Assembly: GCA_963676915.2 (NCBI GenBank)
Contig: CAXXVK010000060.1
Location: 153,514-217,513 of the forward strand
DNA: 64,000 bases
Direction: 5' to 3'
Source: Myxococcota bacterium
GTDB lineage: Bacteria; Myxococcota_A; SURF-8; G963663525
Shown here in pieces: positions 259 to 46,551 of the stretch. The first letter of the stretch is position 1. Each line of letters starts with the position of its first letter. The position numbers were made by a program, and so were the translations under genes. The notes under the pieces were generated by a model. The model ran no database searches. It saw only the letters and a list, made by a program, of their open reading frames with translations, and was not told the DNA's origin.

Positions 259-752
259 AATTTACGTACAATTGCTGGATCAAAACGTTCTCCAGAAACT
301 TCTTCCATCAGTTGCACATAAGAACCGTAGTTAAGCACTCTGTATTTCGCAACATCGGTAGGTGGGTTTTGGATGTTCACACTGTTGAAAGCTGGGCAAT
401 GAGCATGAATCAGCAATCCTTCAGCAACTGAAATAAGCGTTGCCCATTCTTCATTGGTCAGATCTTTACTTCCATCAACCAGTAACCGGCCAATGTAAAT
501 TTCCAAATTGCATGGATCTGAAGTCCAATCATGAAGATCATGTTGTATCAATCTCTGTCGAAACGTTTGATCACAGGCTTTCCCGATGTATAAAAGAACA
601 TTTCGACCATAAATAGGATGCGAGCCATATATTTGGTAAACGCCTCTTGCTGTTTCGCTATTGGTAAGTTGTTCAATTTCTGGGATATCTTCTCCGAATA
701 ACTTGAATGGACCTCTCCAACCGAGACGAATTGAAATAAGTTTTTCACACAT
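213..752 (-). CDS. GIY-YIG nuclease-like protein, with its C-terminus running into the IS end (probably truncated or altered)
   Basis: GIY-YIG-type motif GVYQIYG...(N11)...LYIGKA...FRQRL..H. The last ~15 codons are encoded antisense to the transposase 3' end. Confidence 0.55.
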   Translation of the reverse strand: MCEKLISIRLGWRGPFKLFGEDIPEIEQLTNSETARGVYQIYGSHPIYGRNVLLYIGKACDQTFRQRLIQHDLHDWTSDPCNLEIYIGRLLVDGSKDLTNEEWATLISVAEGLLIHAHCPAFNSVNIQNPPTDVAKYRVLNYGSYVQLMEEVSGERFDPAIVRKLGSVVTRYQARERDI

Positions 753-2885: not shown

Positions 2886-3362
2886 TTAGAATTGACGTTC
2901 GTACGAAGATTTTTTGCTGTCTCGTTCACACCAGTAACTTTCCTGGTTTCCGGGAAAGCGTCGGGCCAGTCGGTCGCGGTTTCCCCGTCGGAACAACAAG
3001 CCGAAGGGGAGAAAAAACAGCAGATACAGGGGAATCAGCGTCAGCCATCCGGCCAGCGTTCCCAACAGCCACGCCAAAGCGCCCACCGCTTTTTCGAACA
3101 CGGCAAAACCGCTCAGAGGCGACAACAGTCCCAACACCAGCGTCAATCCGGTAAACGCGAAAACGAGGATACCCAAGGTTTCGTGAACGAACAGAAACAG
3201 CAGCGGGGCGGCGATCACTCCGATGAATCCCTGCACCAGCGCCCGGTTGATCCGTCGGGACTTCAGCTCGCGAACCCGTCGCTTCGCCGTTCTACCGCTT
3301 GGATCCCAGACACTGTAAGAGGCTTCATGGCGATCCGAAGGCTGCTCCGAGGAGGAGGACAC
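2886..3362 (-). CDS. SxtJ-like multi-pass membrane protein
   Basis: 158 aa with 3-4 hydrophobic helices and a C-terminal ...FRRGNRDRLARRF....SYW motif. It lies immediately upstream of the carbamoyltransferase. Confidence 0.6.
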   Translation of the reverse strand: MSSSSEQPSDRHEASYSVWDPSGRTAKRRVRELKSRRINRALVQGFIGVIAAPLLFLFVHETLGILVFAFTGLTLVLGLLSPLSGFAVFEKAVGALAWLLGTLAGWLTLIPLYLLFFLPFGLLFRRGNRDRLARRFPGNQESYWCERDSKKSSYERQF

Positions 3363-6289: not shown

Positions 6290-8260
6290 ATGCCTGAACG
6301 GCAGTACACATGGAATGACCGACAATGGCAGGCGGAAGAGGGACTCAGCGCGGCGGATATTCTGGCCGCTGGAGGAATCGAACTGACCGCCGACACCGTC
6401 GCTGCAAAATACAACGATGACCTGATCGAACTTTCCCGCACGCTCACCGAAGGCGGTAGCTTGGAACCGGTGGAACTCGACAGCGAAGACGGACTCGAAG
6501 TGATGCGCCACACGGCGGCCCACGTCATGGCGCAGGCGATTCTTCGGGTATTCCCCGAGGCGAAACTGGCTATCGGTCCTACCGTGGAAAACGGTTTCTA
6601 CTACGACATCGATTTCGGCGACAAGGAGTTTTCTTCCAGCGATTTCAAGCGTATCCAGTCGGAGATGCAAAAGATCGTCAAGAAGAAATTCCCCATCGAA
6701 CGCAAAGAAGTCAGTCGGGATGAAGCCCTCGCGATGTGGGAGCCGGAAGGGGAAATCTACAAAGTCGAACTGATCCAGGATCTTCCCGAAGGCGAGACGA
6801 TCAGCACCTATACCCAGGGTGAATTCACCGACCTCTGTCGCGGTCCCCACACTCCCCATACGGGTTTCGTGCGGGCGTTCAAACTGATGAGCGTGGCCGG
6901 AGCCTATTGGCGAGGCGATGAAAAGCGCCAGCAGCTCACTCGTATTTACGGAACCGCGTGGCCGACGAAAGATGCGCTGAAAGACTATCTCCACCGCCTG
7001 GAAGAAGCCGAGAAACGCGACCATCGTAAGCTTGCCAAGCAACTGGAATTGTTCATGATTTCCGAGGAAGCGGGCAAGGGACTTCCCCTGTGGATGCCCA
7101 ACGGAACGATTATTCGGGAAGAACTCGAAAAACTGGCCAAGGAAAAAGAATTCGACTACGGATACGAGCGCGTGGCGACGCCGCACATTACCCGGCAGGA
7201 ACTGTATTTCCGTTCCGGGCATTTGCCATACTACAAGGATTCGATGTTTCCTCCGTTGTCCATGAAAGACAAGGACAAAGATGAGGATGAAGTGTTCTAT
7301 CTCAAGCCGATGAACTGCCCTCACCATCACATGATTTACGCCGCTCGTCCGCGTTCCTACCGTGAACTGCCGTTGCGGCTTTCGGAATACGGTCAGGTGT
7401 ACCGCTACGAGAAATCCGGTGAGCTGGCGGGAATTTTGCGCGTACGGGGAATGTGCATGAACGACGCTCACCTGTACGTCCGCGAAGACCAGTTGAAAGA
7501 GGAATTCCAGCTCGTGATGCAGATGCACAAAGAGTACTACGAGCTGTTCGGCCTGAAAGACTACTACATGCGGCTTTCGCTGGGCGACCCGGAAGACGAC
7601 AAAAAATACTTCAAAGACGATGCTCTGTGGCGCAAGGCCGAAAAAATTTGTGCCGAGGCGATGGACGCGGCCGGAATGAATTACAAAACCGTGCGCGGCG
7701 AGGCGGCGTTCTACGGTCCCAAGGTTGACGTACAATTCAAGAACGTGATGGGACGCGAGGAAACCAACGGCACGAACCAGGTCGATTTCCTGGCCGCCGA
7801 GCGTTTCAATCTGCGCTACATCGGTTCCGACGGACAAGAGCACAAACCGGTGGTACTGCATCGCGCCCCGTTGGGAACCCACGAACGCTTCATCGCTTTT
7901 CTGATCGAGCACTTCGCGGGTGCGTTCCCGCTGTGGATGAGCCCCAAACAGGTGGTGGTGATTCCCGTTGCAGCGGCGTTTGCCGACTATGCCCACAAAC
8001 TCAGCGCCGATCTGCGGGCGGCACGGATTCGCTCGGAAGTGGACGACTCGACCGAAACCCTCAACAAACGCATTCGCACGGCGATCACTCATTGGAAGAC
8101 CCCTTGCGTGCTGGTGGTCGGAGAGCGGGAAATGACTCAGGAAGCCGTCACGCTGCGCCAGTACGGTATCAAAGAGCAGAAACAGATGCCGTACACCGAG
8201 TTCAAAGCCTGGGCCTTGGAACAAATCCGTACCCGTGCTTTACCGGATCGGGAGTTGTAA
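6290..8260 (+). CDS. thrS: Threonine--tRNA ligase
   Basis: TGS-like N-terminus, editing-domain MRHTAAHVMAQAI, class II motifs (PMNCPHHHMIY, YRYEKSGEL, FYGPKVD) and an anticodon-binding C-terminus. GGAGGA lies upstream of the ATG. Confidence 0.97.
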   Translation: MPERQYTWNDRQWQAEEGLSAADILAAGGIELTADTVAAKYNDDLIELSRTLTEGGSLEPVELDSEDGLEVMRHTAAHVMAQAILRVFPEAKLAIGPTVENGFYYDIDFGDKEFSSSDFKRIQSEMQKIVKKKFPIERKEVSRDEALAMWEPEGEIYKVELIQDLPEGETISTYTQGEFTDLCRGPHTPHTGFVRAFKLMSVAGAYWRGDEKRQQLTRIYGTAWPTKDALKDYLHRLEEAEKRDHRKLAKQLELFMISEEAGKGLPLWMPNGTIIREELEKLAKEKEFDYGYERVATPHITRQELYFRSGHLPYYKDSMFPPLSMKDKDKDEDEVFYLKPMNCPHHHMIYAARPRSYRELPLRLSEYGQVYRYEKSGELAGILRVRGMCMNDAHLYVREDQLKEEFQLVMQMHKEYYELFGLKDYYMRLSLGDPEDDKKYFKDDALWRKAEKICAEAMDAAGMNYKTVRGEAAFYGPKVDVQFKNVMGREETNGTNQVDFLAAERFNLRYIGSDGQEHKPVVLHRAPLGTHERFIAFLIEHFAGAFPLWMSPKQVVVIPVAAAFADYAHKLSADLRAARIRSEVDDSTETLNKRIRTAITHWKTPCVLVVGEREMTQEAVTLRQYGIKEQKQMPYTEFKAWALEQIRTRALPDREL

Positions 8261-10730: not shown

Positions 10731-12668
10731 GTGACCAACCTTTTGCTGATCGACAACCAGAAAGACTTCGTTCGTGCCTGGCTGGAAACCGTGAATTCCT
10801 TGTGGCCGGATGGAATGCACCGTTGGGTTACCGATACCTCGACCCTCGGAAACGATTCTGTGGATTTCGTTTTCGTTTCGTTGCAAACCATCCCGAGTGA
10901 ATCCGCTGTGGAATTCGCCAACTGGAGGGTTACGATTCCCGCCGATGCCCGCCTGCTTTTCATCGATGACGACGACAACCCTTGCTATGCAAAACGAACG
11001 TTTTTACATCCGTGGCCGGCATTACCGCGAAAGCAGGTATTGGGTTCTATAGAGCACATTCTCGCTTTTAACCTTTTCGGATGTACGCAAAAAACGGTGG
11101 AAAAGGCACCGAGCGAAAAGATTTCCTCCGTTGCGGAAATCGGGGCCGACCTCTTCGATCGCATCCCCTTGGGACTCCGCGTACGCAACCGCTATGGCGA
11201 AGCGGTCTACAAAAACGCCATGTTTTCCCAGCTCATCAAGGATAAAATCGCATCGGACAATCTCCGGTACATGATTTTCATCAATGGAAAAACCACGCAA
11301 GAGGTTTCCGAGCGGGAACTTGTGGAAATGGTGTTGCAAAACAGCCAGAGTAGCAAGCCGTTTCTTGCTCGAACATCCATGGATTCGACGATCTACCAGA
11401 TAGCATTCACGTCGGTCCAGGAAGGTATAAAAGGCAAGCTATGGATCGTCGAGATCTGGCGGGATATTACGGAAGAGGTGAATATCCAGAAGAGCCTGAT
11501 CAATGCGCAGAAAATGGAAGCCGTCGGGAGCCTTGCCGGAGGCATCGCACATGATTTCAATAACTTGCTGGCCGGGATCATGGGCTATGCCGACCTGATC
11601 AAGATGCTGGCCAAGGGAACGCCTGCTGCCCGGTATGCCGAGACCATCAGCAAAACGAGTGCGAAGGCTTCGGATCTGACGCAACAGTTGGTCGCTTTGA
11701 CCGAACGGCGCGAACAAAGCCCGAAACCCATGAACATGGGAACGGTGGTCAAAAACGCTACAAAATTGATCAAAGCCGGTCTGCCTCCAACCGGAGGGTT
11801 CGAAGTATCGGATTATACCTCGCACGAGAGCGGACGAATTATCGGTATTCCCCAGCAGATTCAACAACTTCTGGTGTCGTTTTCAAAAGCGGTGAAAGAC
11901 AGTCTGGAACAGGCCAAGTTGTCGTTGGATTGCCGAGATTATCGCCTCGATTCTTCCAGCGAATGGGTGAGGAAAAAGAATATCGATCCGGGTTTGTACA
12001 TCGGAGTGTTTATCAAGGTCGAAGGAGATTTGACGGATTTTACACTTTTCGAGCAGTTCAGACGTCTGGTGGAGGGCAAAAAGAAGGATTTCGAAGTTTC
12101 CGGGGTCAGTCTGCAAGTTGCCGCCAACATCGTACAAGCCCATCAATGCCGCGTGTTGATCGAAAAAAAGGGAACCTCTGCTCAGCGTTTGGTTTTACTG
12201 TTTCCGAAACAGGACAAAACCATCGAAATCGATTCTACGGATGCCATCCAGATGGACCATCCCTGGTGCATTCTCGCGGTCGATGACGAGGAAATCATTC
12301 GTCGTATGCTTGGCGTCGGTTTGGGACGCTTCGGCTACGAAGTCGAAACCGCCGAATCGGGAATGGAAGCTCTGGAAATCCTCAAGGATCGACCGGAGGA
12401 TTTCGACCTGATCCTGCTCGATATGCTCATGCCGGGATGGACCGGAGCGAAAACGTTTTACAAAATAAAAGAGGTTCTGCGAGATCCCCAAATCATCATC
12501 TTTTCCGGTATGGCCGATCCGGGGGATGTCAAAGATCTTTTACGCGACGGTGCTTTGGATTACATCCAGAAACCGATTCGGTTGCCGGTTCTGGCGCAAC
12601 GTCTCAATGAATTCTTTGCTCAATCCCGAAAAGGTTCGGCCGCACCGATGCCTCGTGTCGGAAGCTGA
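10731..12668 (+). CDS. Hybrid sensor histidine kinase / response regulator with a degenerate ATP-binding domain
   Basis: GTG start with AAGAGG upstream. H-box IAHDFNNLLAGIMGYADL. C-terminal receiver ILAVDDEE...LILLDMLMPGWTG...KP. The N, G1 and G2 boxes are not recognisable. Confidence 0.85.
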   Translation: MTNLLLIDNQKDFVRAWLETVNSLWPDGMHRWVTDTSTLGNDSVDFVFVSLQTIPSESAVEFANWRVTIPADARLLFIDDDDNPCYAKRTFLHPWPALPRKQVLGSIEHILAFNLFGCTQKTVEKAPSEKISSVAEIGADLFDRIPLGLRVRNRYGEAVYKNAMFSQLIKDKIASDNLRYMIFINGKTTQEVSERELVEMVLQNSQSSKPFLARTSMDSTIYQIAFTSVQEGIKGKLWIVEIWRDITEEVNIQKSLINAQKMEAVGSLAGGIAHDFNNLLAGIMGYADLIKMLAKGTPAARYAETISKTSAKASDLTQQLVALTERREQSPKPMNMGTVVKNATKLIKAGLPPTGGFEVSDYTSHESGRIIGIPQQIQQLLVSFSKAVKDSLEQAKLSLDCRDYRLDSSSEWVRKKNIDPGLYIGVFIKVEGDLTDFTLFEQFRRLVEGKKKDFEVSGVSLQVAANIVQAHQCRVLIEKKGTSAQRLVLLFPKQDKTIEIDSTDAIQMDHPWCILAVDDEEIIRRMLGVGLGRFGYEVETAESGMEALEILKDRPEDFDLILLDMLMPGWTGAKTFYKIKEVLRDPQIIIFSGMADPGDVKDLLRDGALDYIQKPIRLPVLAQRLNEFFAQSRKGSAAPMPRVGS

Positions 12669-12687
12669 TTTTTCATGGATTGAAAAA

Positions 12688-18382: not shown

Positions 18383-19408
18383 TCATTCATCGAGCTTTTC
18401 GGCCATCTCCCGAGCATCGTCGATCAGGCGGTCCAGTTTCGTCGAATCCAGGTGCAATGCCTTGGCGGAGGCTTCGACCATTTTCGGCATCGTGTAGTCG
18501 ATGATGGTCACGCTTTTCTGCTCTTTGTCGTCCAGAATCCCGGCTTCGATTTCGTTGGCGATCCATTCGGCCAGACAGGCGGTCGCCATAGCGGGAGTTA
18601 CGGTCTGATCCGGCTTGAATTTGTGATGGTATTCAATCGCTTCCCGAATGTTTTCAGGGAGTTTCCACAATCGGGCCAGAATTCCCCCGGTTTCTTCATG
18701 CAAATCGTTGATCGCGGGCCAGAGCAGATCGAGGCTGAATCTGGCCTCGGGGGTTTTGCCTTCTCCAAGTGCGATCAACAACCCGGCCATACCGATATCG
18801 TGCATCAAGCCGATCAAAAACGCCTGGCCTTCCATCAACCCGGTACGAGAACCGATCAACTTGGCGACGCGGGCCGTCGCTACACTGTGACGACGCAGAA
18901 AATCCATCTGCTCGGAAAACCGTTCGACACGAAACACCCGCATGTCCATCGCCACCTGCCAGACGATATCCCGGATGGTAGCCAGTCCCAGACGAACGAT
19001 GGCGTGCTCCAGGGAAATCATTTTGCTTTGTCCACCGTAGAACGGGGAATTGACGATTTGCAGCACGCGACCCGTCAAAACGGGGTCCATTTCGAGAACT
19101 TCGCCGATTTTGGCGAAGGTGATGTTCGTTTGCCCTGTGAGTTCGTGGACTTCCATGGCGATACGAGGAAGCACGGGAGGCTTGTAATCGGGGGATTTGA
19201 ACAGGGAAAGCAGCGTTTTCCTTAACGTTTTTCCCGCTTCCGATGCGTCGAGATCTTCGGACGATACCTGCCAGCGAGTCCGATCGATCGTGCTCTTTTT
19301 TTCGATACGACCCAAAGCATCTTTGGCTTGCCGTTTCGGTGATGTTTTGCCGGAATTTCGAGAAGGGGCTGCGTCTTTTTTCTTTGTTTTTCGCCGACCG
19401 AGAAACAT
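18383..19408 (-). CDS. HDOD domain protein
   Basis: Internal Met at 19408, because the longer ORF overlaps the upstream gene. VLQIVNSPFYGG....ISLEHAIVRLGLATIRDIV and GLMHDIGM are typical HDOD blocks. Confidence 0.8.
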   Translation of the reverse strand: MFLGRRKTKKKDAAPSRNSGKTSPKRQAKDALGRIEKKSTIDRTRWQVSSEDLDASEAGKTLRKTLLSLFKSPDYKPPVLPRIAMEVHELTGQTNITFAKIGEVLEMDPVLTGRVLQIVNSPFYGGQSKMISLEHAIVRLGLATIRDIVWQVAMDMRVFRVERFSEQMDFLRRHSVATARVAKLIGSRTGLMEGQAFLIGLMHDIGMAGLLIALGEGKTPEARFSLDLLWPAINDLHEETGGILARLWKLPENIREAIEYHHKFKPDQTVTPAMATACLAEWIANEIEAGILDDKEQKSVTIIDYTMPKMVEASAKALHLDSTKLDRLIDDAREMAEKLDE

Positions 19409-40188: not shown

Positions 40189-40228
40189 AAACGCGCCGGG
40201 TGGATCAATCCTCCGGCGCGTTTTTTTC
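40189..40228. terminator. Bidirectional intrinsic terminator that overlaps the last codons of the minus-strand OMP gene
   Basis: AACGCGCCGG / CCGGCGCGTT stem with TTTTTTT on the plus strand and TTTTAAATT on the minus strand. Confidence 0.7.
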
Positions 40229-41570
40229 GTCCTGTTGTGGTTTGAAGCCACGGAAGAATTCGCCCATCGTGGGATATTCTTCTCGGTCCTGCTCTTCCTT
40301 TTTCATGGCTTTGCGCGTGGCGCTCTCGGTGTCGTCGTTGTAGCGGATGCTTCCGGCGTACAGCAATCCAAGGTACCATTCTTTCACACCCAACCTGCGT
40401 TCCTGCACCACTTCGTGTCCGCCACCCATGGCCGCATTCAACCCCAGCATCGAGGTCGTAAAGGCGTTTTCCCAGCCGAACGCCGCCGTAATTCCGTAAA
40501 AATCGATTGCGGTAGGCATCCCTTCGCGGCTACGCGAGGGTTTGGGGGCCGAACTGAAATCGGTATACATCCCGGCACGCAGAAAATACCAGCGTCGAAA
40601 ACGTTGCTCGAATCCCAGGTTGACGTTGCCGATGGCATCGAGCTTCACCGGTCCGTCCGCCAACTCCCGGTTGGTCTGGTCGTGAATGGTCACGTCCGCA
40701 ACGAAGGTCGTATTCAAAAACGGCTGAAACGCGACGCCCGCCCGAAAGGAAAACGGCATTTCGATGGATTCCGAAATCGTCCGGTTGGAAATGTAGATCG
40801 GCTCGTCTTGAGGATCGTTGGTGGTGTGGATCGACCGAAATCTTGTTTTCGACCGGGCCGGGAAGGCCGAACGAATCCTCAGTCCGGCCTGTATCATCGG
40901 ATGAGGACGTATCCAGACACCCAGAATCGGCGTAAAACCGATGAAGGCACGCTCGGCCACGTTGACGGTATGATCGAAACGTCCGTTGAGTTCCGTCAGC
41001 TCCGAGCGATTTTCGTACTCGGTCCGATAGTAGGCATAGAGTGTCGCGCCAACGGCGAACGCCGGATGCAGCCGGTAGGCCACCGACGGTCCGGCGAACA
41101 TTTCCTGACTTTTGTTGGAAATGTCGATGTAGAGATAAGGTTGTTCCTTCTCGGTCACGAATTGCGCCGACTGCTCGTTGCTTTCCGGGACCGCGACGGT
41201 AAACGCCGCCGTCCAGTCCCCGAAGCGCATCAGGGTTCCCGTGGTCGCACCGATGACGTTGAACGCGCTCTGGGTCAGGTCTTTGCCGTCCCGATAGTTT
41301 TCCACGGTCCGATAGCGTAACTGGTAGATCGACAGGCTCAATGATAGCGAATCGTAACGGGCATTGGCCATTCCGGCGGGATTGTAGTACGCACCGGAAG
41401 GATCGTCCGAAATGGCAGTGAAAGCTCCACCCATCCCGGCGGCGCGTTCGCCGATCAGGCTATCACTATAATGATAGGGGTCTGCGAAAGCCGCCTGCAA
41501 TCCGAGGAATAAACCACAGACAGCCAGCACTAGCCCGATGCAACGACGAGTGACCCGGCCCCTTCGCGGC

Positions 41571-41578
<8 letters not shown>
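40205..41578 (-). CDS. Outer-membrane beta-barrel channel, FadL/TodX/PorV-like
   Basis: Start MPEPRRG..., signal peptide ending AAFA/DP, an N-terminal GERAAGMGGAFTAISDDPSGAYYNPAGMA motif, and alternating beta-strand pattern. Its start overlaps the upstream regulator's stop by 8 nt (ATGCCTGA). Confidence 0.7.
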
Positions 41579-42956
<1,378 letters not shown>

Positions 42957-43023
42957 ACAGTCCTCAACCTAGAATCCAAAAAAAAACATTTGTCATGTTC
43001 GATTGCTCTCTTAGGAAAGCAAG

Positions 43024-43097
43024 AAAACGCGAAAGATGCAAGGAGTTTTCGCGAAAAAATTTCGCTCTCTTGACGTTTATTTTTCGCAAAGCGAAAT
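43024..43097. promoter_or_regulatory. Cluster of TTTCGC/GCGAAA half-sites, a candidate enhancer (UAS) for the adjacent sigma-54 activator
   Basis: AAAACGCGAAAG (43024-43035), the palindrome TTTTCGCGAAAA (43046-43057), ATTTCGC (43059-43065), and TTTCGC-AAA-GCGAAA (43082-43096). They lie 140-210 bp upstream of the -24/-12 element. Confidence 0.35.
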
Positions 43098-43232
43098 ATT
43101 TTCCTTCTTTAGGGTTTATTTGTATCTAACAGTTATTTAACATTTGGTTTTAGAATCAAAAAAACTGTTTAATTACATATTGTTACGCTATTTATATTTG
43201 TTATTTTTTACTGTCCTTTGTGTATATCAGAT

Positions 43233-43248
43233 TGGTATTTTTTTTGCA
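43233..43248 (+). promoter_or_regulatory. Sigma-54 (-24/-12) promoter candidate
   Basis: TGGTATTTTTTTTGCA compared with the consensus TGGCAC-N5-TTGCA. The GG and GC dinucleotides have exact spacing and the -12 half TTGCA is perfect. Confidence 0.55.
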
Positions 43249-43257
43249 CATCTTAAG

Positions 43258-43389
43258 TGCTGTTGAATCCCTCAAAAATCTCCCCGGATTTTTGAGTCTT
43301 TGAGATCGGAGTGTGCCCCTACTTCGGTCTGGTTCGGAAAACTCCGAACACCCCCTGTGGCGAGAGTTCCCCCCTCTCGCCATTTTTTT
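43258..43389 (+). ncRNA. Sigma-54-dependent small RNA candidate with four C-rich single-stranded motifs
   Basis: Hairpins at 43271-43296 (10 bp, loop UCCCCG), 43304-43329 (7 bp, loop with GCCCCU) and 43332-43349 (7 bp). Linker ACCCCCU. The terminator hairpin 43359-43381 has loop UUCCCCC followed by AUUUUUUU. There is no credible ORF. Confidence 0.55.
43359..43389 (+). terminator. Intrinsic terminator of the sRNA candidate
   Basis: GGCGAGAG / CTCTCGCC 8-bp stem followed by ATTTTTTT. Confidence 0.8.
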
Positions 43390-43710
43390 GATCTTTTCAT
43401 TCGAGAGACGACTCTAATTCGTTAGAGAATCGCGTTCTTTTTGGTTACAATTATATCCTCATGGGGTTATGTTCTCGTGTCAATGCAAGTCATTCATTTA
43501 TTTTTATCGGAATATTTTTTTGGAAAATAAATGGATTCCAAAGAAATTTTCTTTATAATGTATCCAGGTAGGTAAGATTGTTTCATGATTCGTTGTATAT
43601 GGAACATGAACTCCCAATGAAAACCGTTGTTTCACAAACACTTAGCCTCCAGCATTCGCTGAATGCCACAAGAAAACGATAGAGACGGACTGATTATTTC
43701 TGGAGTAACG

Positions 43711-44910
43711 ATGCAGCACACCCCCGTTGAAATCGACGCTTTTCCCGAAGCATGGCGTTCCTTGGCCGACGCCAACGCATCTCCTCTGATTTTCACCGAC
43801 GAAAAAGGTCATCTGCTTTACGGGAATCCCTCGTGGCAGGCGTGGAGCCATGACCTTCGAACCACTTTGCTTGATGTTTCTGCAAAACTTCTCCAGCATG
43901 AGTTTTCTCAAACCCGTTCCATTTTGGAAAACCTGACGATTCCGAATCTCGGTGCTATCGCCTGTACCTGCGAATGGCTTGAAGATCGAGGCAAACGTTT
44001 CGGGATGCTGCGTTTCGAGCCGGAGAACCAACCGGTCCTCGAACCCGGAAAAGTAGCCATCGACCGGGAAATGGCCGCCCGCTGGGCGTTGTTGTCCGCT
44101 CGCATGAACAGCGTGGCCGATGTGGCCGCCGGGTTGGCGCACGAAATCAACAACCCTCTGGGCGGTCTGTTGCAAACGGTACAGCTTTTATCGCGTAACC
44201 TGACCATCGATCACGAACGCACCCACGCCCAACTGGAAAAAATCGGATTTGCCGAGGACGAAATCACCAAGTTGGCAAAATACATCGAAGAACGCCAACT
44301 GCTTTATTTTCTTCAGATTATCGGCGAAAGCGGTGAGCGTGCCCGAGCGATGGTATCGTACATGGTCGAATTTTCCCGCCAGCGCCCGGCCGAGCATCAC
44401 GAGGTAGATCTCGTCACGTTGGTAAAGCGCTGCATCGAGCTGGCCAAACTCGATACGGACATGCGTAAAATCTACCAATTCGCCCGGCTTCCCCTCGATA
44501 TGACGGCCGATCCTACCTACATCGGTGGCGTTTGCATCGAACAACAAGCGAAATATGTATTCTTGCGCTCACTCAAGCGACACGCTGCCGGACTGCATGC
44601 CGCCACGCAGGAAAAGGATGCGTTTTTTCCCGAGTTGCGTCTCGATTTGAGCTATCGTGACGACCGGGCGGTGATCGTTTTCAGCGACAACGGCCTGCCG
44701 CCCACACCCGAAGACATCCGCCTCGTCGAAGACGGTTCTCTGGATGCCGTATGGAGCACCGACGAGTCACGGTTCGATCTCGCCGTCAGTTCGTTTTTAT
44801 GGCAATCCTTCAATCATGGTGGCTATACGTTGTCCGAAAACGAGCGAGGCGGCTGCACCACCGAACTGACCCTTCCGCGAAAAAACGGTCAATCGGCACA
44901 TGTGGGGTAA
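43711..44910 (+). CDS. Soluble sensor histidine kinase (weak G1/G2 boxes)
   Basis: The ATG at 43711 has GGAG 7 nt upstream; the ORF is open from 43663. H-box GLAHEINNPLGGL. The C-terminal HATPase-like domain has DNG but no clear GxGLG. Confidence 0.8.
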   Translation: MQHTPVEIDAFPEAWRSLADANASPLIFTDEKGHLLYGNPSWQAWSHDLRTTLLDVSAKLLQHEFSQTRSILENLTIPNLGAIACTCEWLEDRGKRFGMLRFEPENQPVLEPGKVAIDREMAARWALLSARMNSVADVAAGLAHEINNPLGGLLQTVQLLSRNLTIDHERTHAQLEKIGFAEDEITKLAKYIEERQLLYFLQIIGESGERARAMVSYMVEFSRQRPAEHHEVDLVTLVKRCIELAKLDTDMRKIYQFARLPLDMTADPTYIGGVCIEQQAKYVFLRSLKRHAAGLHAATQEKDAFFPELRLDLSYRDDRAVIVFSDNGLPPTPEDIRLVEDGSLDAVWSTDESRFDLAVSSFLWQSFNHGGYTLSENERGGCTTELTLPRKNGQSAHVG

Positions 44911-45252: not shown

Positions 45253-46551
45253 TTATTCGTTTGTATCGCACCGAAACGGTTTGAGTTCCCCAACCCCGCG
45301 ACGTTCGACGTACTCCCGCCAGACCCCGGGGCATTCTTTGGCCAGACGACAGGAAGCGCAAGGAGATTCGGGGTGAACCTTCCGACCCGCTTTTTGCGTC
45401 CAGCCTTCGCGCCATCCTGACTCTCCGGTTGAACTCAACAGCATTTTCCGTGTTCTTCCACGGACTTCCTCACCCCGCGCCACGCACAACGGAACATCCA
45501 GCAGCGACACCAGCGGGCTTTCCTCACGTGGGGTGAGCAGGCGTGAAACCACCGCTTCAACGGCTGTCAGTGACGGCATCACCTCGTCGAAATGCTCCAA
45601 CGCCCATCCACCCGGTTCGGGAAAGGAAAATGTGGCCGAAGACACCTCGGACCGGGTGAGATAGTCCAAGATTTCCGGCAGAAACTCCTGATTCTGCTTG
45701 GTAATCACCGTACTGGAAAACAGCGCCCGTTCGCCGAACCATTGTTCCCGCCGCGAACCCGTAGCCTCGACGACGTTGGCCAACGCACGGGCTTTGATCT
45801 CGAAGGCGTTCGAGCGGGTGGTCAAAGCCTGTTCGATCTCCGGCTGATGCCCCAGAATCGATAACGTTACCTGATGCAGCCCCGCCGCGAAAATATTGCG
45901 ACAGAAATCGGGTTTGGCGAACCCGTATCCATTGGAAATCATTCGGATCGAGCGATACCCCAGGCGTTTCGCCTCGGCCACCAGATCGAGGATATCCGGC
46001 CTCAAGGTGGGTTCCATAGCGGTAAACTCGACGCCCCGTGCCCCCCGTTCCCGTCGCTGGCGTAGCAAGACAAGCAAATCCTCGGTCGAGGTGTCGGGAA
46101 TTCCCGCCGGGCGATTGATGCAGAAACGACAGCGGTTCTGGCAATGGGGCGAGGCTTCGATATCGAACGAAAGGGCGTTCTCGTCGTCGAAGATGTCGTA
46201 CTTTCGACGAAGGTTGTCCCAAAAAGGAGGTTTTGGGCCGGAATCGCTGTTGCGCCGAACCAGTTCCACCATCAGCCGGGCGAAACGAGCAACGGACTCG
46301 GGTAGCGGTTCTTCGGCATCCAGCACGGCGAAATCGAACCAGCGGCTTCTCTCGAACGCCGGACGACCCTCCTTGTGGGGAAGAAGACCCAGCTTCAAGG
46401 CGGTAGAATCACGGTAGGCGAACACCGCACGAATCGTTTTTCCCGGAACGATGTCCACCAGCTTCCAGCCGTCTCGAAACCCTTGACCTGGGCGAAGCGG
46501 ACGAAAAAGTTCCAGTAGGTTTTGAGGGATAACGGGGGCGTTCGAGGACAC
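45253..46551 (-). CDS. Radical SAM protein with an N-terminal extension and a Cys-rich (SPASM/twitch-like) C-terminus
   Basis: CQNRCRFC (CxxxCxxC), GVEFTAMEPTL, RMISNG. The C-terminus carries CASCRLAKEC (Cx2Cx5C). Confidence 0.85.
   Translation of the reverse strand: MSSNAPVIPQNLLELFRPLRPGQGFRDGWKLVDIVPGKTIRAVFAYRDSTALKLGLLPHKEGRPAFERSRWFDFAVLDAEEPLPESVARFARLMVELVRRNSDSGPKPPFWDNLRRKYDIFDDENALSFDIEASPHCQNRCRFCINRPAGIPDTSTEDLLVLLRQRRERGARGVEFTAMEPTLRPDILDLVAEAKRLGYRSIRMISNGYGFAKPDFCRNIFAAGLHQVTLSILGHQPEIEQALTTRSNAFEIKARALANVVEATGSRREQWFGERALFSSTVITKQNQEFLPEILDYLTRSEVSSATFSFPEPGGWALEHFDEVMPSLTAVEAVVSRLLTPREESPLVSLLDVPLCVARGEEVRGRTRKMLLSSTGESGWREGWTQKAGRKVHPESPCASCRLAKECPGVWREYVERRGVGELKPFRCDTNE

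Follow-up and report, generated by a model that had tools for sequence, protein, structure and literature searches.

Genes for small RNAs (sRNAs) that depend on sigma-54 and lie beside the gene of their own enhancer-binding activator are a recurring design, with LuxO/Qrr, CbrB/CrcZ, and GlrR/GlmY as examples. In Vibrio LuxO/Qrr1, the genes for the NtrC-family activator and the sigma-54-dependent sRNA diverge from one shared intergenic region, where the sites of the activator are also located; the RNA folds into several hairpins followed by a terminator. Other sRNAs, i.e., RsaE/RoxS of the Firmicutes, 6C RNA, and CcsR, carry unpaired C-rich motifs that pair with G-rich ribosome-binding sites, and RsaE/RoxS is under two-component control. 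Here we describe a locus of a Myxococcota bacterium, located in a 64-kb stretch of contig CAXXVK010000060.1 (the window, to which all coordinates given without a locus name refer), in which a predicted sRNA of about 131 nt (43259-43389, plus strand) is divergent from the gene of an NtrC-family response regulator (41571-42956, minus strand). The RNA belongs to a real, conserved, and uncatalogued sRNA family of a few uncultured Myxococcota, apparently under sigma-54 and two-component control, and thus provides a comparatively supported example from a group with almost no known riboregulators.

The locus resembles LuxO/Qrr1 in having the same divergent gap between activator and sRNA, with predicted activator sites, hairpins, and a terminator. 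Unlike it, Qrr uses a conserved Hfq-dependent seed that is not C-rich and comes from a different phylum, whereas the window RNA has no Rfam match and no paralogues were seen in the window or the related loci. To our knowledge, the model species of the Myxococcota lacks Hfq. With RsaE/RoxS, 6C, and CcsR the window RNA shares the C-rich motifs in unpaired loops and linkers, but the promoters of those RNAs are of the sigma-70 type, they come from other phyla, and the family described here has the loop consensus C4-7UA and a variable number of hairpins.

Two further cases of the design are DVU0679/Dv_sRNA2 and PxrR/Pxr (PMC3333781; PMC5568312, PMC5684412). The NtrC-family regulator DVU0679 of Desulfovibrio vulgaris has as its mapped target the adjacent sRNA, which possesses a predicted sigma-54 promoter and a binding site conserved in relatives (PMC3333781); that sRNA lies downstream of its regulator, in a different phylum, and is likened to ours by description, not by sequence. 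The closest known system is PxrR/Pxr of Myxococcus xanthus and other Cystobacterineae, in which the sRNA Pxr is a gatekeeper of development. Pxr is also from the Myxococcota, its gene adjoins those of an NtrC-like response regulator and a histidine kinase, and it has a sigma-54 promoter, several stem-loops, and a terminator hairpin (PMC5568312, PMC5684412). The C-rich loop of its first stem-loop (SL1) is essential, and a single C-to-A change in it inactivates Pxr (PMC5684412). This 7-nt loop, UUCCCCC, is nearly identical to the SL1 and terminator loops of the family: SL1 ends in UGCCCCC or UUCCCCC in the main clade and in UCCCCG in the window. On the other hand, pxr is located downstream of pxrR on the same strand, while the window RNA is divergent from and upstream of its activator, and the neighboring genes differ. 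Pxr has 108 nt and three stem-loops; the RNAs of the family have 128-294 nt and four to eight hairpins, together with a conserved 5' motif, AGCWGUAUC loops, and a C-rich terminator loop. We rebuilt 105 of the 108 nt of Pxr from the published Northern probe and primers, and no significant similarity to these fragments was found beyond 9-13 nt. Given the difference in layout and the lack of wider similarity, we file the RNA as one that would work in the way of Pxr or Qrr, and do not assign it to the Pxr family.

The Predicted RNA and Its Fold

The start of the RNA was placed 12 nt past the GC of the -12 promoter element and its end at the U-tract of the terminator. The segment 43258-43392 folds into four hairpins with a minimum free energy (MFE) of -51.3 kcal/mol (z = -6.35), a stability that 200 dinucleotide shuffles never reached; a second computation, made among the 12 RNAs of the family, gave z = -6.78. 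At the 5' end, two alignments identify GUUGAAUCCCUC (43262-43273) as a cut-down form of the single-stranded 5' motif of the family, UUCAUUGAAYCAUUUGCCCUCAG. Hairpin 1 (43271-43296) has a stem of 10-11 bp and the loop (U)CCCC(G) in the MFE fold, and an A-to-G change in L001, the closest related locus, retains the pair as G-U. Hairpin 2 (43303-43330) contains GCCCCUACU, which is the C-type loop of the family (four to seven C followed by UA), and hairpin 3 (43332-43349) has a 7-bp stem and the loop AAAC, without a conserved loop motif; in L001 this stem is kept and the loop reads UUAAU. The single-stranded linker ACCCCCU (43350-43356) leads to the intrinsic terminator (43357-43389), which was recognized by a terminator scan and by covariation. 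Its stem GGCGAGAG/CUCUCGCC with the loop UUCCCCC occupies 43357-43383 and is followed by U7 (T7 at 43383-43389). All these elements are on the plus strand. The three hairpins and the terminator described in the earlier note are thus all present, although the stem of hairpin 2 has 11 bp in the MFE fold and not 7.

The four runs of four to six C (43282-43285, 43316-43319, 43351-43355, and 43369-43374) are all unpaired. The earlier note had assigned such a run to every unpaired segment, which does not apply to the 5' leader, the linker between SL1 and SL2, and the loop of SL3. In L001 (3570-3686), the RNA is 89% identical over 119 nt while the flanking gap is unconserved, and a model of the family terminator (R1) scored 47.5 bits on the window RNA (E 4.8e-10).

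Conservation of the Module beside Orthologous Activators

A scan with the activator protein, taking one genome per species, yielded 41 loci. In the protein search, a cluster of orthologues (P0001-P0015) with 62-90% identity was followed by a fall to at most 57%. The close loci come from metagenome-assembled genomes (MAGs) of uncultured Myxococcota: L001 (90% identity), L002 (69%), L003 (67%), and L004 (62%). Seven further contigs of the orthologue cluster were added to the comparison, and the set thus includes MAGs of uncultured Myxococcota and metagenome contigs. Near-complete genomes are available for L001 (CAXXHC010000001.1, a 3.3-Mb contig), L003 (OY782497.1, a chromosome of 5.18 Mb), L046 (ERZ25042269, 5.98 Mb), and L047 (2.69 Mb).

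Ten of the 11 orthologous activator loci (L001-L004, L043, L044, and L046-L049) carry the RNA module. In each of them the divergent gap (540-880 nt) contains, on the strand opposite to the activator, two upstream sites, a -24/-12 match, a structured multi-hairpin RNA of 128-294 nt, and a terminator, commonly of the form AUGGCGAGAGGCCUCCCCCnnCUCUCGCCAU7-9. The recurrence of these parts, with order and distances unchanged, supports the proposal of the earlier note that this would be a two-component-controlled, sigma-54-dependent sRNA in a LuxO/Qrr-like divergent layout, and also answers its question of whether the promoter and the hairpins are conserved next to orthologous activators. A plain sequence search recognizes L001 alone; the other loci were found through position and architecture.

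An eleventh further copy of the RNA, L072, was found in metagenome contigs through its terminator sequence. In that scan, 22 of the 24 matches to the terminator pattern were GC-rich chance hairpins, and the only family members were L072 and L074, a duplicate of L049. This result suggests that the family is rare in that collection or that its terminator varies. The R1 model found exactly one copy in each family locus and none elsewhere in the window, in the remaining orthologous locus L045, or in the loci of distant activators, so that paralogous copies were not seen in the window or in any of the loci. The RNA was not found beside more distant activators, i.e., those of L005-L008 and L012 (47-48% identity, in kinase-regulator operons) and of L050-L052 (53-57%); the module is confined to the clade with at least 62% identity.

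The upstream region of L045 (3850-4000) has its own peculiarities: the gap has only 157 nt, and next to its site-like sequences GTTTGCAAGCAAATTTTACGCGC and GACGAAATTATTGCC come a long GC palindrome, CGAGAGCGCGCGCAGATTATGCGCGCGCTCTCG, and a gene of 396 aa in the same orientation.

Predicted Promoter and Upstream Sites

The sigma-54 promoter-like element TGGTATTTTTTTTGCA (TGGTAT-N5-TTTGCA) lies at 43233-43248 on the plus strand. Its GG and GC occupy positions 2-3 and 14-15 of the motif, so that the rightward -24/-12 spacing reported in the earlier note is confirmed. The weight of this predicted promoter comes from the comparison among loci and not from the motif alone. A -24/-12 match occurs at the same place in the 10 orthologous loci, where it reads TGGCAC or TGGCAT-N5-nTGC, as in TGGCACGTTGTTTGC (L043), TGGCACGGCGTTTGC (L046), and TGGCACGCGGATTGC (L049), with a weaker version, TGGCATGATAGATGC, in L003.

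Two putative activator sites are located upstream. Site 1 is the perfect inverted repeat GCGAAA-AAA-TTTCGC at 43051-43065, 182 bp upstream of the -24 TGG, and is the sole perfect copy of GCGAAA-N3-TTTCGC in the window. Its position across the loci is about -170 to -185; the palindrome is also perfect in L001 (-183) and L004 (-185), and reads GCGAAAnAATTGCR in the remaining loci. Site 2, GCGAAATATTTTCCT (43091-43105), lies 40 bp downstream of site 1, at about -142, and has two mismatches to the palindrome. The corresponding block is ACGAAATATTTTCC in L001 and GCGAAATATTTTTGC in L004, and the other loci show CGCAATnnnnTGCR at the matching position. Both sites hold their distance to the promoter in 11 loci (about -182 and -142 in the window), and the two predicted sites fall within the enhancer distance of about 80-200 bp upstream of a promoter. 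The sequence of the sites varies from one activator clade to another, in the way that a cognate operator would. The earlier note had pointed to a cluster of TTTCGC/GCGAAA half-sites with a 12-bp palindrome. The palindromes are present (TTTTCGCGAAAA at 43046-43057 and TTTCGC-AAA-GCGAAA at 43082-43096), but the conserved element is GCGAAA-N3-TTTCGC together with site 2, and not the 12-bp palindrome.

When the gap was aligned with that of L001, conservation was restricted to 43017-43065, 43080-43105, the promoter, and the RNA. The segment between the sites and the promoter (43106-43232) is AT-rich in the composition profile (about 28% GC) and unconserved with respect to L001; we presume that it is looping DNA. 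The distance from these sites to the start codon of the activator gene, which they also precede, is about 95-150 bp, and this makes autoregulation plausible.

A sequence resembling the consensus of the integration host factor (IHF), WATCAANNNNTTR, with one mismatch, TATCTAACAGTTA, occurs at 43123-43135 in the AT-rich spacer, and is unconserved at the aligned position of L001.

Anatomy and Covariation of the RNA Family

We compared 12 RNAs, namely those of the window, the ten orthologous loci, and L072. Four elements recur in the RNAs of the main clade: the 5' motif, SL1, two to six further hairpins, and a terminator with a C-rich loop. The 5' motif is conserved, mostly single-stranded, and present in a single copy (alignments A1 and A2), and SL1 has about 13 bp and a 7-nt loop. 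The further hairpins carry two kinds of loops, the C-type (C4-7 and then UA) and AGCWGUAUC. C4 followed by UA is found in loops of 10 of the 12 RNAs; the AGCWGUAUC word (AGCAGUAUC or AGCUGUAUC) appears three times in L047, which has in addition a GCAGUAUCG loop, while the part of L072 that was retrieved has it four times. Across the family the number of hairpins goes from four to eight, the stems differ while the loops are the same, and the copy number differs between relatives. The RNAs of the window and L001 are short, diverged members with four hairpins, which have no AGCWGUAUC loop and retain the GCCCCUACU loop and the family terminator.

As a further observation on the second loop word, it occurs in main-clade RNAs as AGCAGUAUC, AGCUGUAUC, or AGUUGUAUC on tandem hairpins, up to four or more of them, whose stems are unrelated (L047 3544-3616, L072 12857-12956, L049 2873, and L043 3590, all on the minus strand).

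The fold z-scores of the 12 RNAs against dinucleotide shuffles are between -4.9 and -7.9. Runs of at least four C are unpaired in 44 of 45 cases, against about 40% of the bases overall, and all 12 RNAs together contain a single run of at least four G. The terminator helix is 98% paired over the 12 members, with changes on both sides at five of its nine pairs (0/500 shuffles as good), and SL1 is 87% paired over eight sequences with compensatory changes at 8 of 13 pairs, its covariation score being 0.571 against 0.24 in shuffled alignments (0/500) and at most 0.137 in controls with slid partners; these counts come from model-fitted alignments of 8-12 related sequences and are supportive, not probabilities. 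Plain MAFFT alignments threw the 3' arms of SL1 out of register, and we used instead a seed of four sequences with hairpins of equal length and realignment with Infernal. The resulting model of the 5' motif and SL1 (R2) recovered five non-seed members at the expected position (L046, 42 bits; L002, 40; L047, 30; L004, 19; and L003, 13), L003 being left out of the SL1 covariation alignment as it was below the E-value cut-off.

R2 also matched the window at 12603-12676 on the plus strand (CTCAATGAATTCTTTGCTCAATCCCG..., 21.9 bits, E about 0.003). We consider this a chance match because it lies inside a coding open reading frame (ORF; 10731-12668), at its 3' end, and has no C-rich loop. The ORF itself encodes 645 aa and is receiver-domain-like by sequence.

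The absence of a named family, suspected in the earlier note, was confirmed with the Rfam 15 covariance models, which matched neither the window region 42000-44500 (E<=10) nor the RNA of seven loci of the family (E<=1); the Rfam 15 families without a match include Qrr, RsaE/RoxS, CrcZ, and 6C. No conserved ORF was found in the family RNAs, and those of the window and L001 have no ATG. The RNAs do admit open frames of 30-70 codons, with varying starts and non-ATG codons, most of them crossing the terminator and altering with the number of hairpins. The conserved coding frame that would have spoken for a protein was not seen, and compensatory changes are present in the stems. Downstream of the RNA, the adjacent gene is convergent with it in L043, L044, L047, and L049, and on the same strand in L002, L046, and L048, and the downstream genes are unrelated between loci. 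The convergent gene in four loci, the lack of an Rfam match, and the lack of a conserved ORF indicate a stand-alone sRNA, independent of the downstream genes.

Proposed Mode of Action and Alternative Explanations

The explanation that we favor, with moderate confidence, is a stand-alone, trans-acting sRNA gene that depends on sigma-54 and on the divergent NtrC-type activator, and whose C-rich loops pair with G-rich, Shine-Dalgarno-like regions of mRNAs. The regulator would be phosphorylated, the adjacent HisKA protein being a plausible though unproven sensor in the window genome, and would then bind the inverted-repeat sites at 43051-43065 and 43091-43105, about 180 and 140 bp upstream of the promoter. 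From there it would contact the sigma-54 holoenzyme at 43233-43248 over the AT-rich spacer, and the RNA of about 131 nt would be made, ending at the terminator (43357-43389). The C4-C6 runs, which are restricted to loops and linkers, and the CCCUC of the 5' end would pair with G-rich, Shine-Dalgarno-like mRNA regions, altering translation or stability. In the terminator loop, most of the main clade has CCUCC, the anti-Shine-Dalgarno sequence; together with the unpaired C-runs and the CCCUC of the 5' motif, this points to pairing with ribosome-binding regions, as in RsaE/RoxS.

Several observations weigh against this explanation, in addition to the limits of the covariation counts given above. 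The promoter motif by itself is at chance level, with 23 matches (up to two mismatches to TGGCAC-N5-TTGCW) in the whole window against 25.8 expected, and the window's own -24 element, TGGTAT, is weak. Little of the conserved 5' motif is left in the RNA copies of the window and L001, and R2 does not detect them. Within 4 kb of the activator orthologue of L045 (69% identity) there is no such RNA, which looks like a loss or rearrangement of the RNA gene, judging from its upstream region. Neither the 64-kb window nor the flanks of the relatives yielded a convincing target, and UAGGGG complements are rare, with three in the window outside the RNA and none at a start codon. Finally, the identical loops in the tandem hairpins of L047 and L072 suit a protein sponge at least as well as pairing.

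Uninformative target searches are to be expected with only 64 kb and flanks of 4 kb. For 352 candidate translation-start regions from the window, cofolding with the sRNA was noisy, and its lone outlier, at 19197 (-23.9 kcal/mol), was rejected because the duplex would require melting of the terminator. A duplex search with the 5' motif against the start regions of neighboring genes in six relatives, in which the motif of L043 and L044 was mis-extracted, gave no target common to the loci. The proposal of the earlier note that the RNA might govern envelope or transport genes is not supported: these searches found no target, and the outer-membrane-like gene and the kinase gene are syntenic in the window and L001 only.

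The main rival to pairing is that the RNA sponges a protein, as CsrB/RsmZ and CrcZ do; gene and control would be unchanged, and the repeated C4-7UA and AGCWGUAUC loops would titrate an RNA-binding protein. We consider it unlikely, even though the family is modular, with four to eight hairpins on unlike stems that present the same loops (C4+UA in 10 of the 12 RNAs), in a copy number that varies between relatives as in CsrB/RsmZ-type sponges, where one short motif is repeated in many hairpin loops. CrcZ of Pseudomonas is likewise a sigma-54-dependent sRNA that adjoins an NtrC-type regulator, CbrB, and the failure of the searches to find an mRNA target in the window and in the flanks of the relatives would also suit a sponge. 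However, no candidate binding protein is linked to the locus, and the window RNA has only four C-runs, all its motifs being of the C-type, without an AGCWGUAUC loop. The motifs of the known sponges are A-rich (Hfq/Crc) or GGA (CsrA), in contrast to the C-rich and AGCWGUAUC words of the family, and there is no Rfam match. The C-rich loops of RsaE/RoxS and Pxr are thought to act through pairing, and the most conserved stretch of the family is the single-copy, single-stranded 5' motif, which is typical of a pairing seed. The variable count of identical loops makes the family a test case for distinguishing pairing from sponge sRNAs. As a candidate for a sponge-type shared motif, AGCAGUAUC directly before the ATG of the 734-aa gene of L043 was not significant, since about five chance occurrences were expected and just two were found outside the RNAs.

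A distant homology to Pxr, with the activator as the counterpart of PxrR (Nla19), is a question of ancestry that is compatible with either pairing or a sponge, and we regard it as quite doubtful. Both RNAs come from the same phylum according to the record titles, and a sigma-54 promoter, an NtrC-like regulator, and a kinase also adjoin pxr (PMC5568312, PMC5684412). The SL1 loop UUCCCCC is shared, and the apical part of Pxr SL1, GGUUCCCCCCACC, is comparable to GGUUGCCCCCACC in SL1 of L044 and to GGUUCCCCC in L047 and L049. Nevertheless, the likeness is restricted to 9-13 nt with E about 0.24 or worse on the rebuilt Pxr fragments, and the gene order there is nla19 (pxrR), pxr, and an NADH dehydrogenase gene, with pxr downstream of its regulator and co-oriented with it (PMC5568312). 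With its three stem-loops, Pxr lacks the UUGAAYCAUUUGCCCUC motif and its terminator loop is not C-rich; the sole Myxococcaceae-labelled protein among the top 120 homologues of the activator (P0108, L050) is outside a pxr-like context; and the origin of pxr has been published as inside the Cystobacterineae (PMC11928866). The likeness of the SL1 loop to the essential loop of Pxr is a handle on whether Pxr-like regulation is older and wider than that origin. The interest of the family would rise if it were a modular decoy RNA that titrates an RNA-binding protein through two loop words on interchangeable stems, or possibly a deep-branching relative ancestral to Pxr, a joint proposal that we hold to be improbable; if Pxr descends from a relative of the family, the origin of pxr would move outside the Cystobacterineae.

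A cis-acting role of the structured region, as leader or attenuator for the kinase gene that follows, is very improbable. The same-strand kinase begins about 320 nt past the terminator in the window and L001, and a same-strand gene also follows in L002, L046, and L048; however, in the four loci with a convergent gene there is nothing to read into, and the downstream genes are unrelated from locus to locus. In addition, the terminator is strong, conserved, and followed by U7-U9, and the separate conserved blocks at 43452-43471 and 43492-43551 fit a promoter of the kinase's own. Chance or a small protein-coding gene can practically be dismissed, since the chance-level promoter motif and the drawable 30-70-codon frames are all that favors them, against the fold z-scores, the covariation, the architecture conserved across 11-12 loci, and frames that are inconsistent, have varying non-ATG starts, and mostly run through the terminator, with no ATG in the RNAs of the window and L001.

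The family is compact and each of its parts can be recognized (two sites, promoter, seed-like 5' motif, two loop words, and terminator), and thus it could be rebuilt in a heterologous host for the study of a two-component system whose organism is unculturable.

Activator, Kinase, and Neighboring Genes

The activator gene (41571-42956, minus strand) encodes receiver, AAA+, and Fis-type helix-turn-helix (HTH) domains, according to Pfam (Response_reg 1.6e-27, Sigma54_activat 3.6e-69, HTH_8 1.5e-10) and to the translation, in which GAFTGA and a Walker A motif (GESGTGKE) are seen, so that the earlier description as a REC-AAA+(GAFTGA)-HTH sigma-54 activator was correct. It did not reach the NCBIfam equivalog cut-offs, the top model being AtoC with 482 bits against the 714 required.

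The ORF at 40205-41578 on the minus strand encodes a 457-aa secreted, outer-membrane-barrel-like protein with a signal-peptide-like N-terminus. It starts 8 nt before the end of the activator stop codon, and the 8-nt overlap noticed earlier is real (ATGCCTGA). Its description as FadL/PorV-like retains a weak likeness, but all matches are below threshold (PorV_fam E 2.4e-07, 30.7 bits against a cut-off of 90; Toluene_X/FadL E 0.004). The synteny of this gene and the kinase gene is limited to the window and L001, and the 457-aa ORF is unrelated to the gene of 713-734 aa found downstream of the activator elsewhere.

The gene that follows the RNA (43712-44910, plus strand) encodes a histidine-kinase-like protein, the candidate partner sensor. 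It has a HisKA domain (4.1e-08) with an H-box and looks soluble, as had been proposed, but its ATPase domain is degenerate, HATPase_c being below threshold (13 bits, E 0.13). The start is probably the ATG at 43712 rather than 43663, because a GGAG-N6-ATG is conserved there in L001 while 43663-43711 is not. Between the terminator and this start, two blocks are conserved between the window and L001 (43452-43471 and 43492-43551) and a sigma-70-like site was called at 43423-43451; the blocks may be the kinase's own promoter.

In three main-clade loci, the activator is followed by a gene for a protein of 713-734 aa (L043 5469-7673, L044 5443-7590, and L047 5498-7639); the L047 and L044 proteins are 56% identical. 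Pfam gave no match to it up to E<=0.5, but its HGTGG and GHSxGG motifs suggest an alpha/beta hydrolase. Four family loci also have a radical SAM gene a few kb or less from the sRNA, mostly convergent with it (window 45253-46551, minus strand; L044 464-1381; L047 2075-3367; L049 1515-2720), and that of the window has a weak HxsC4-like NCBIfam match (120 bits against a cut-off of 500).

Two minor observations concern chance matches of the terminator scan. In L063 (contig Ga0316628_100100370, about 330-440, plus strand), the match is near further hairpins with C6 loops (GGTATCCCCCCGG... and GTCGGTTCCCCCCGTCGAAACGACGGGACCCCCCTCC), which may be an unrelated RNA with C-rich loops. In two related metagenome contigs, L060 (about 6900-7050) and L065 (about 3150-3250), more than 10 copies of tandem 10-nt repeats, GAGCCATGAC or GAGCCATGCC, lie upstream of the match.

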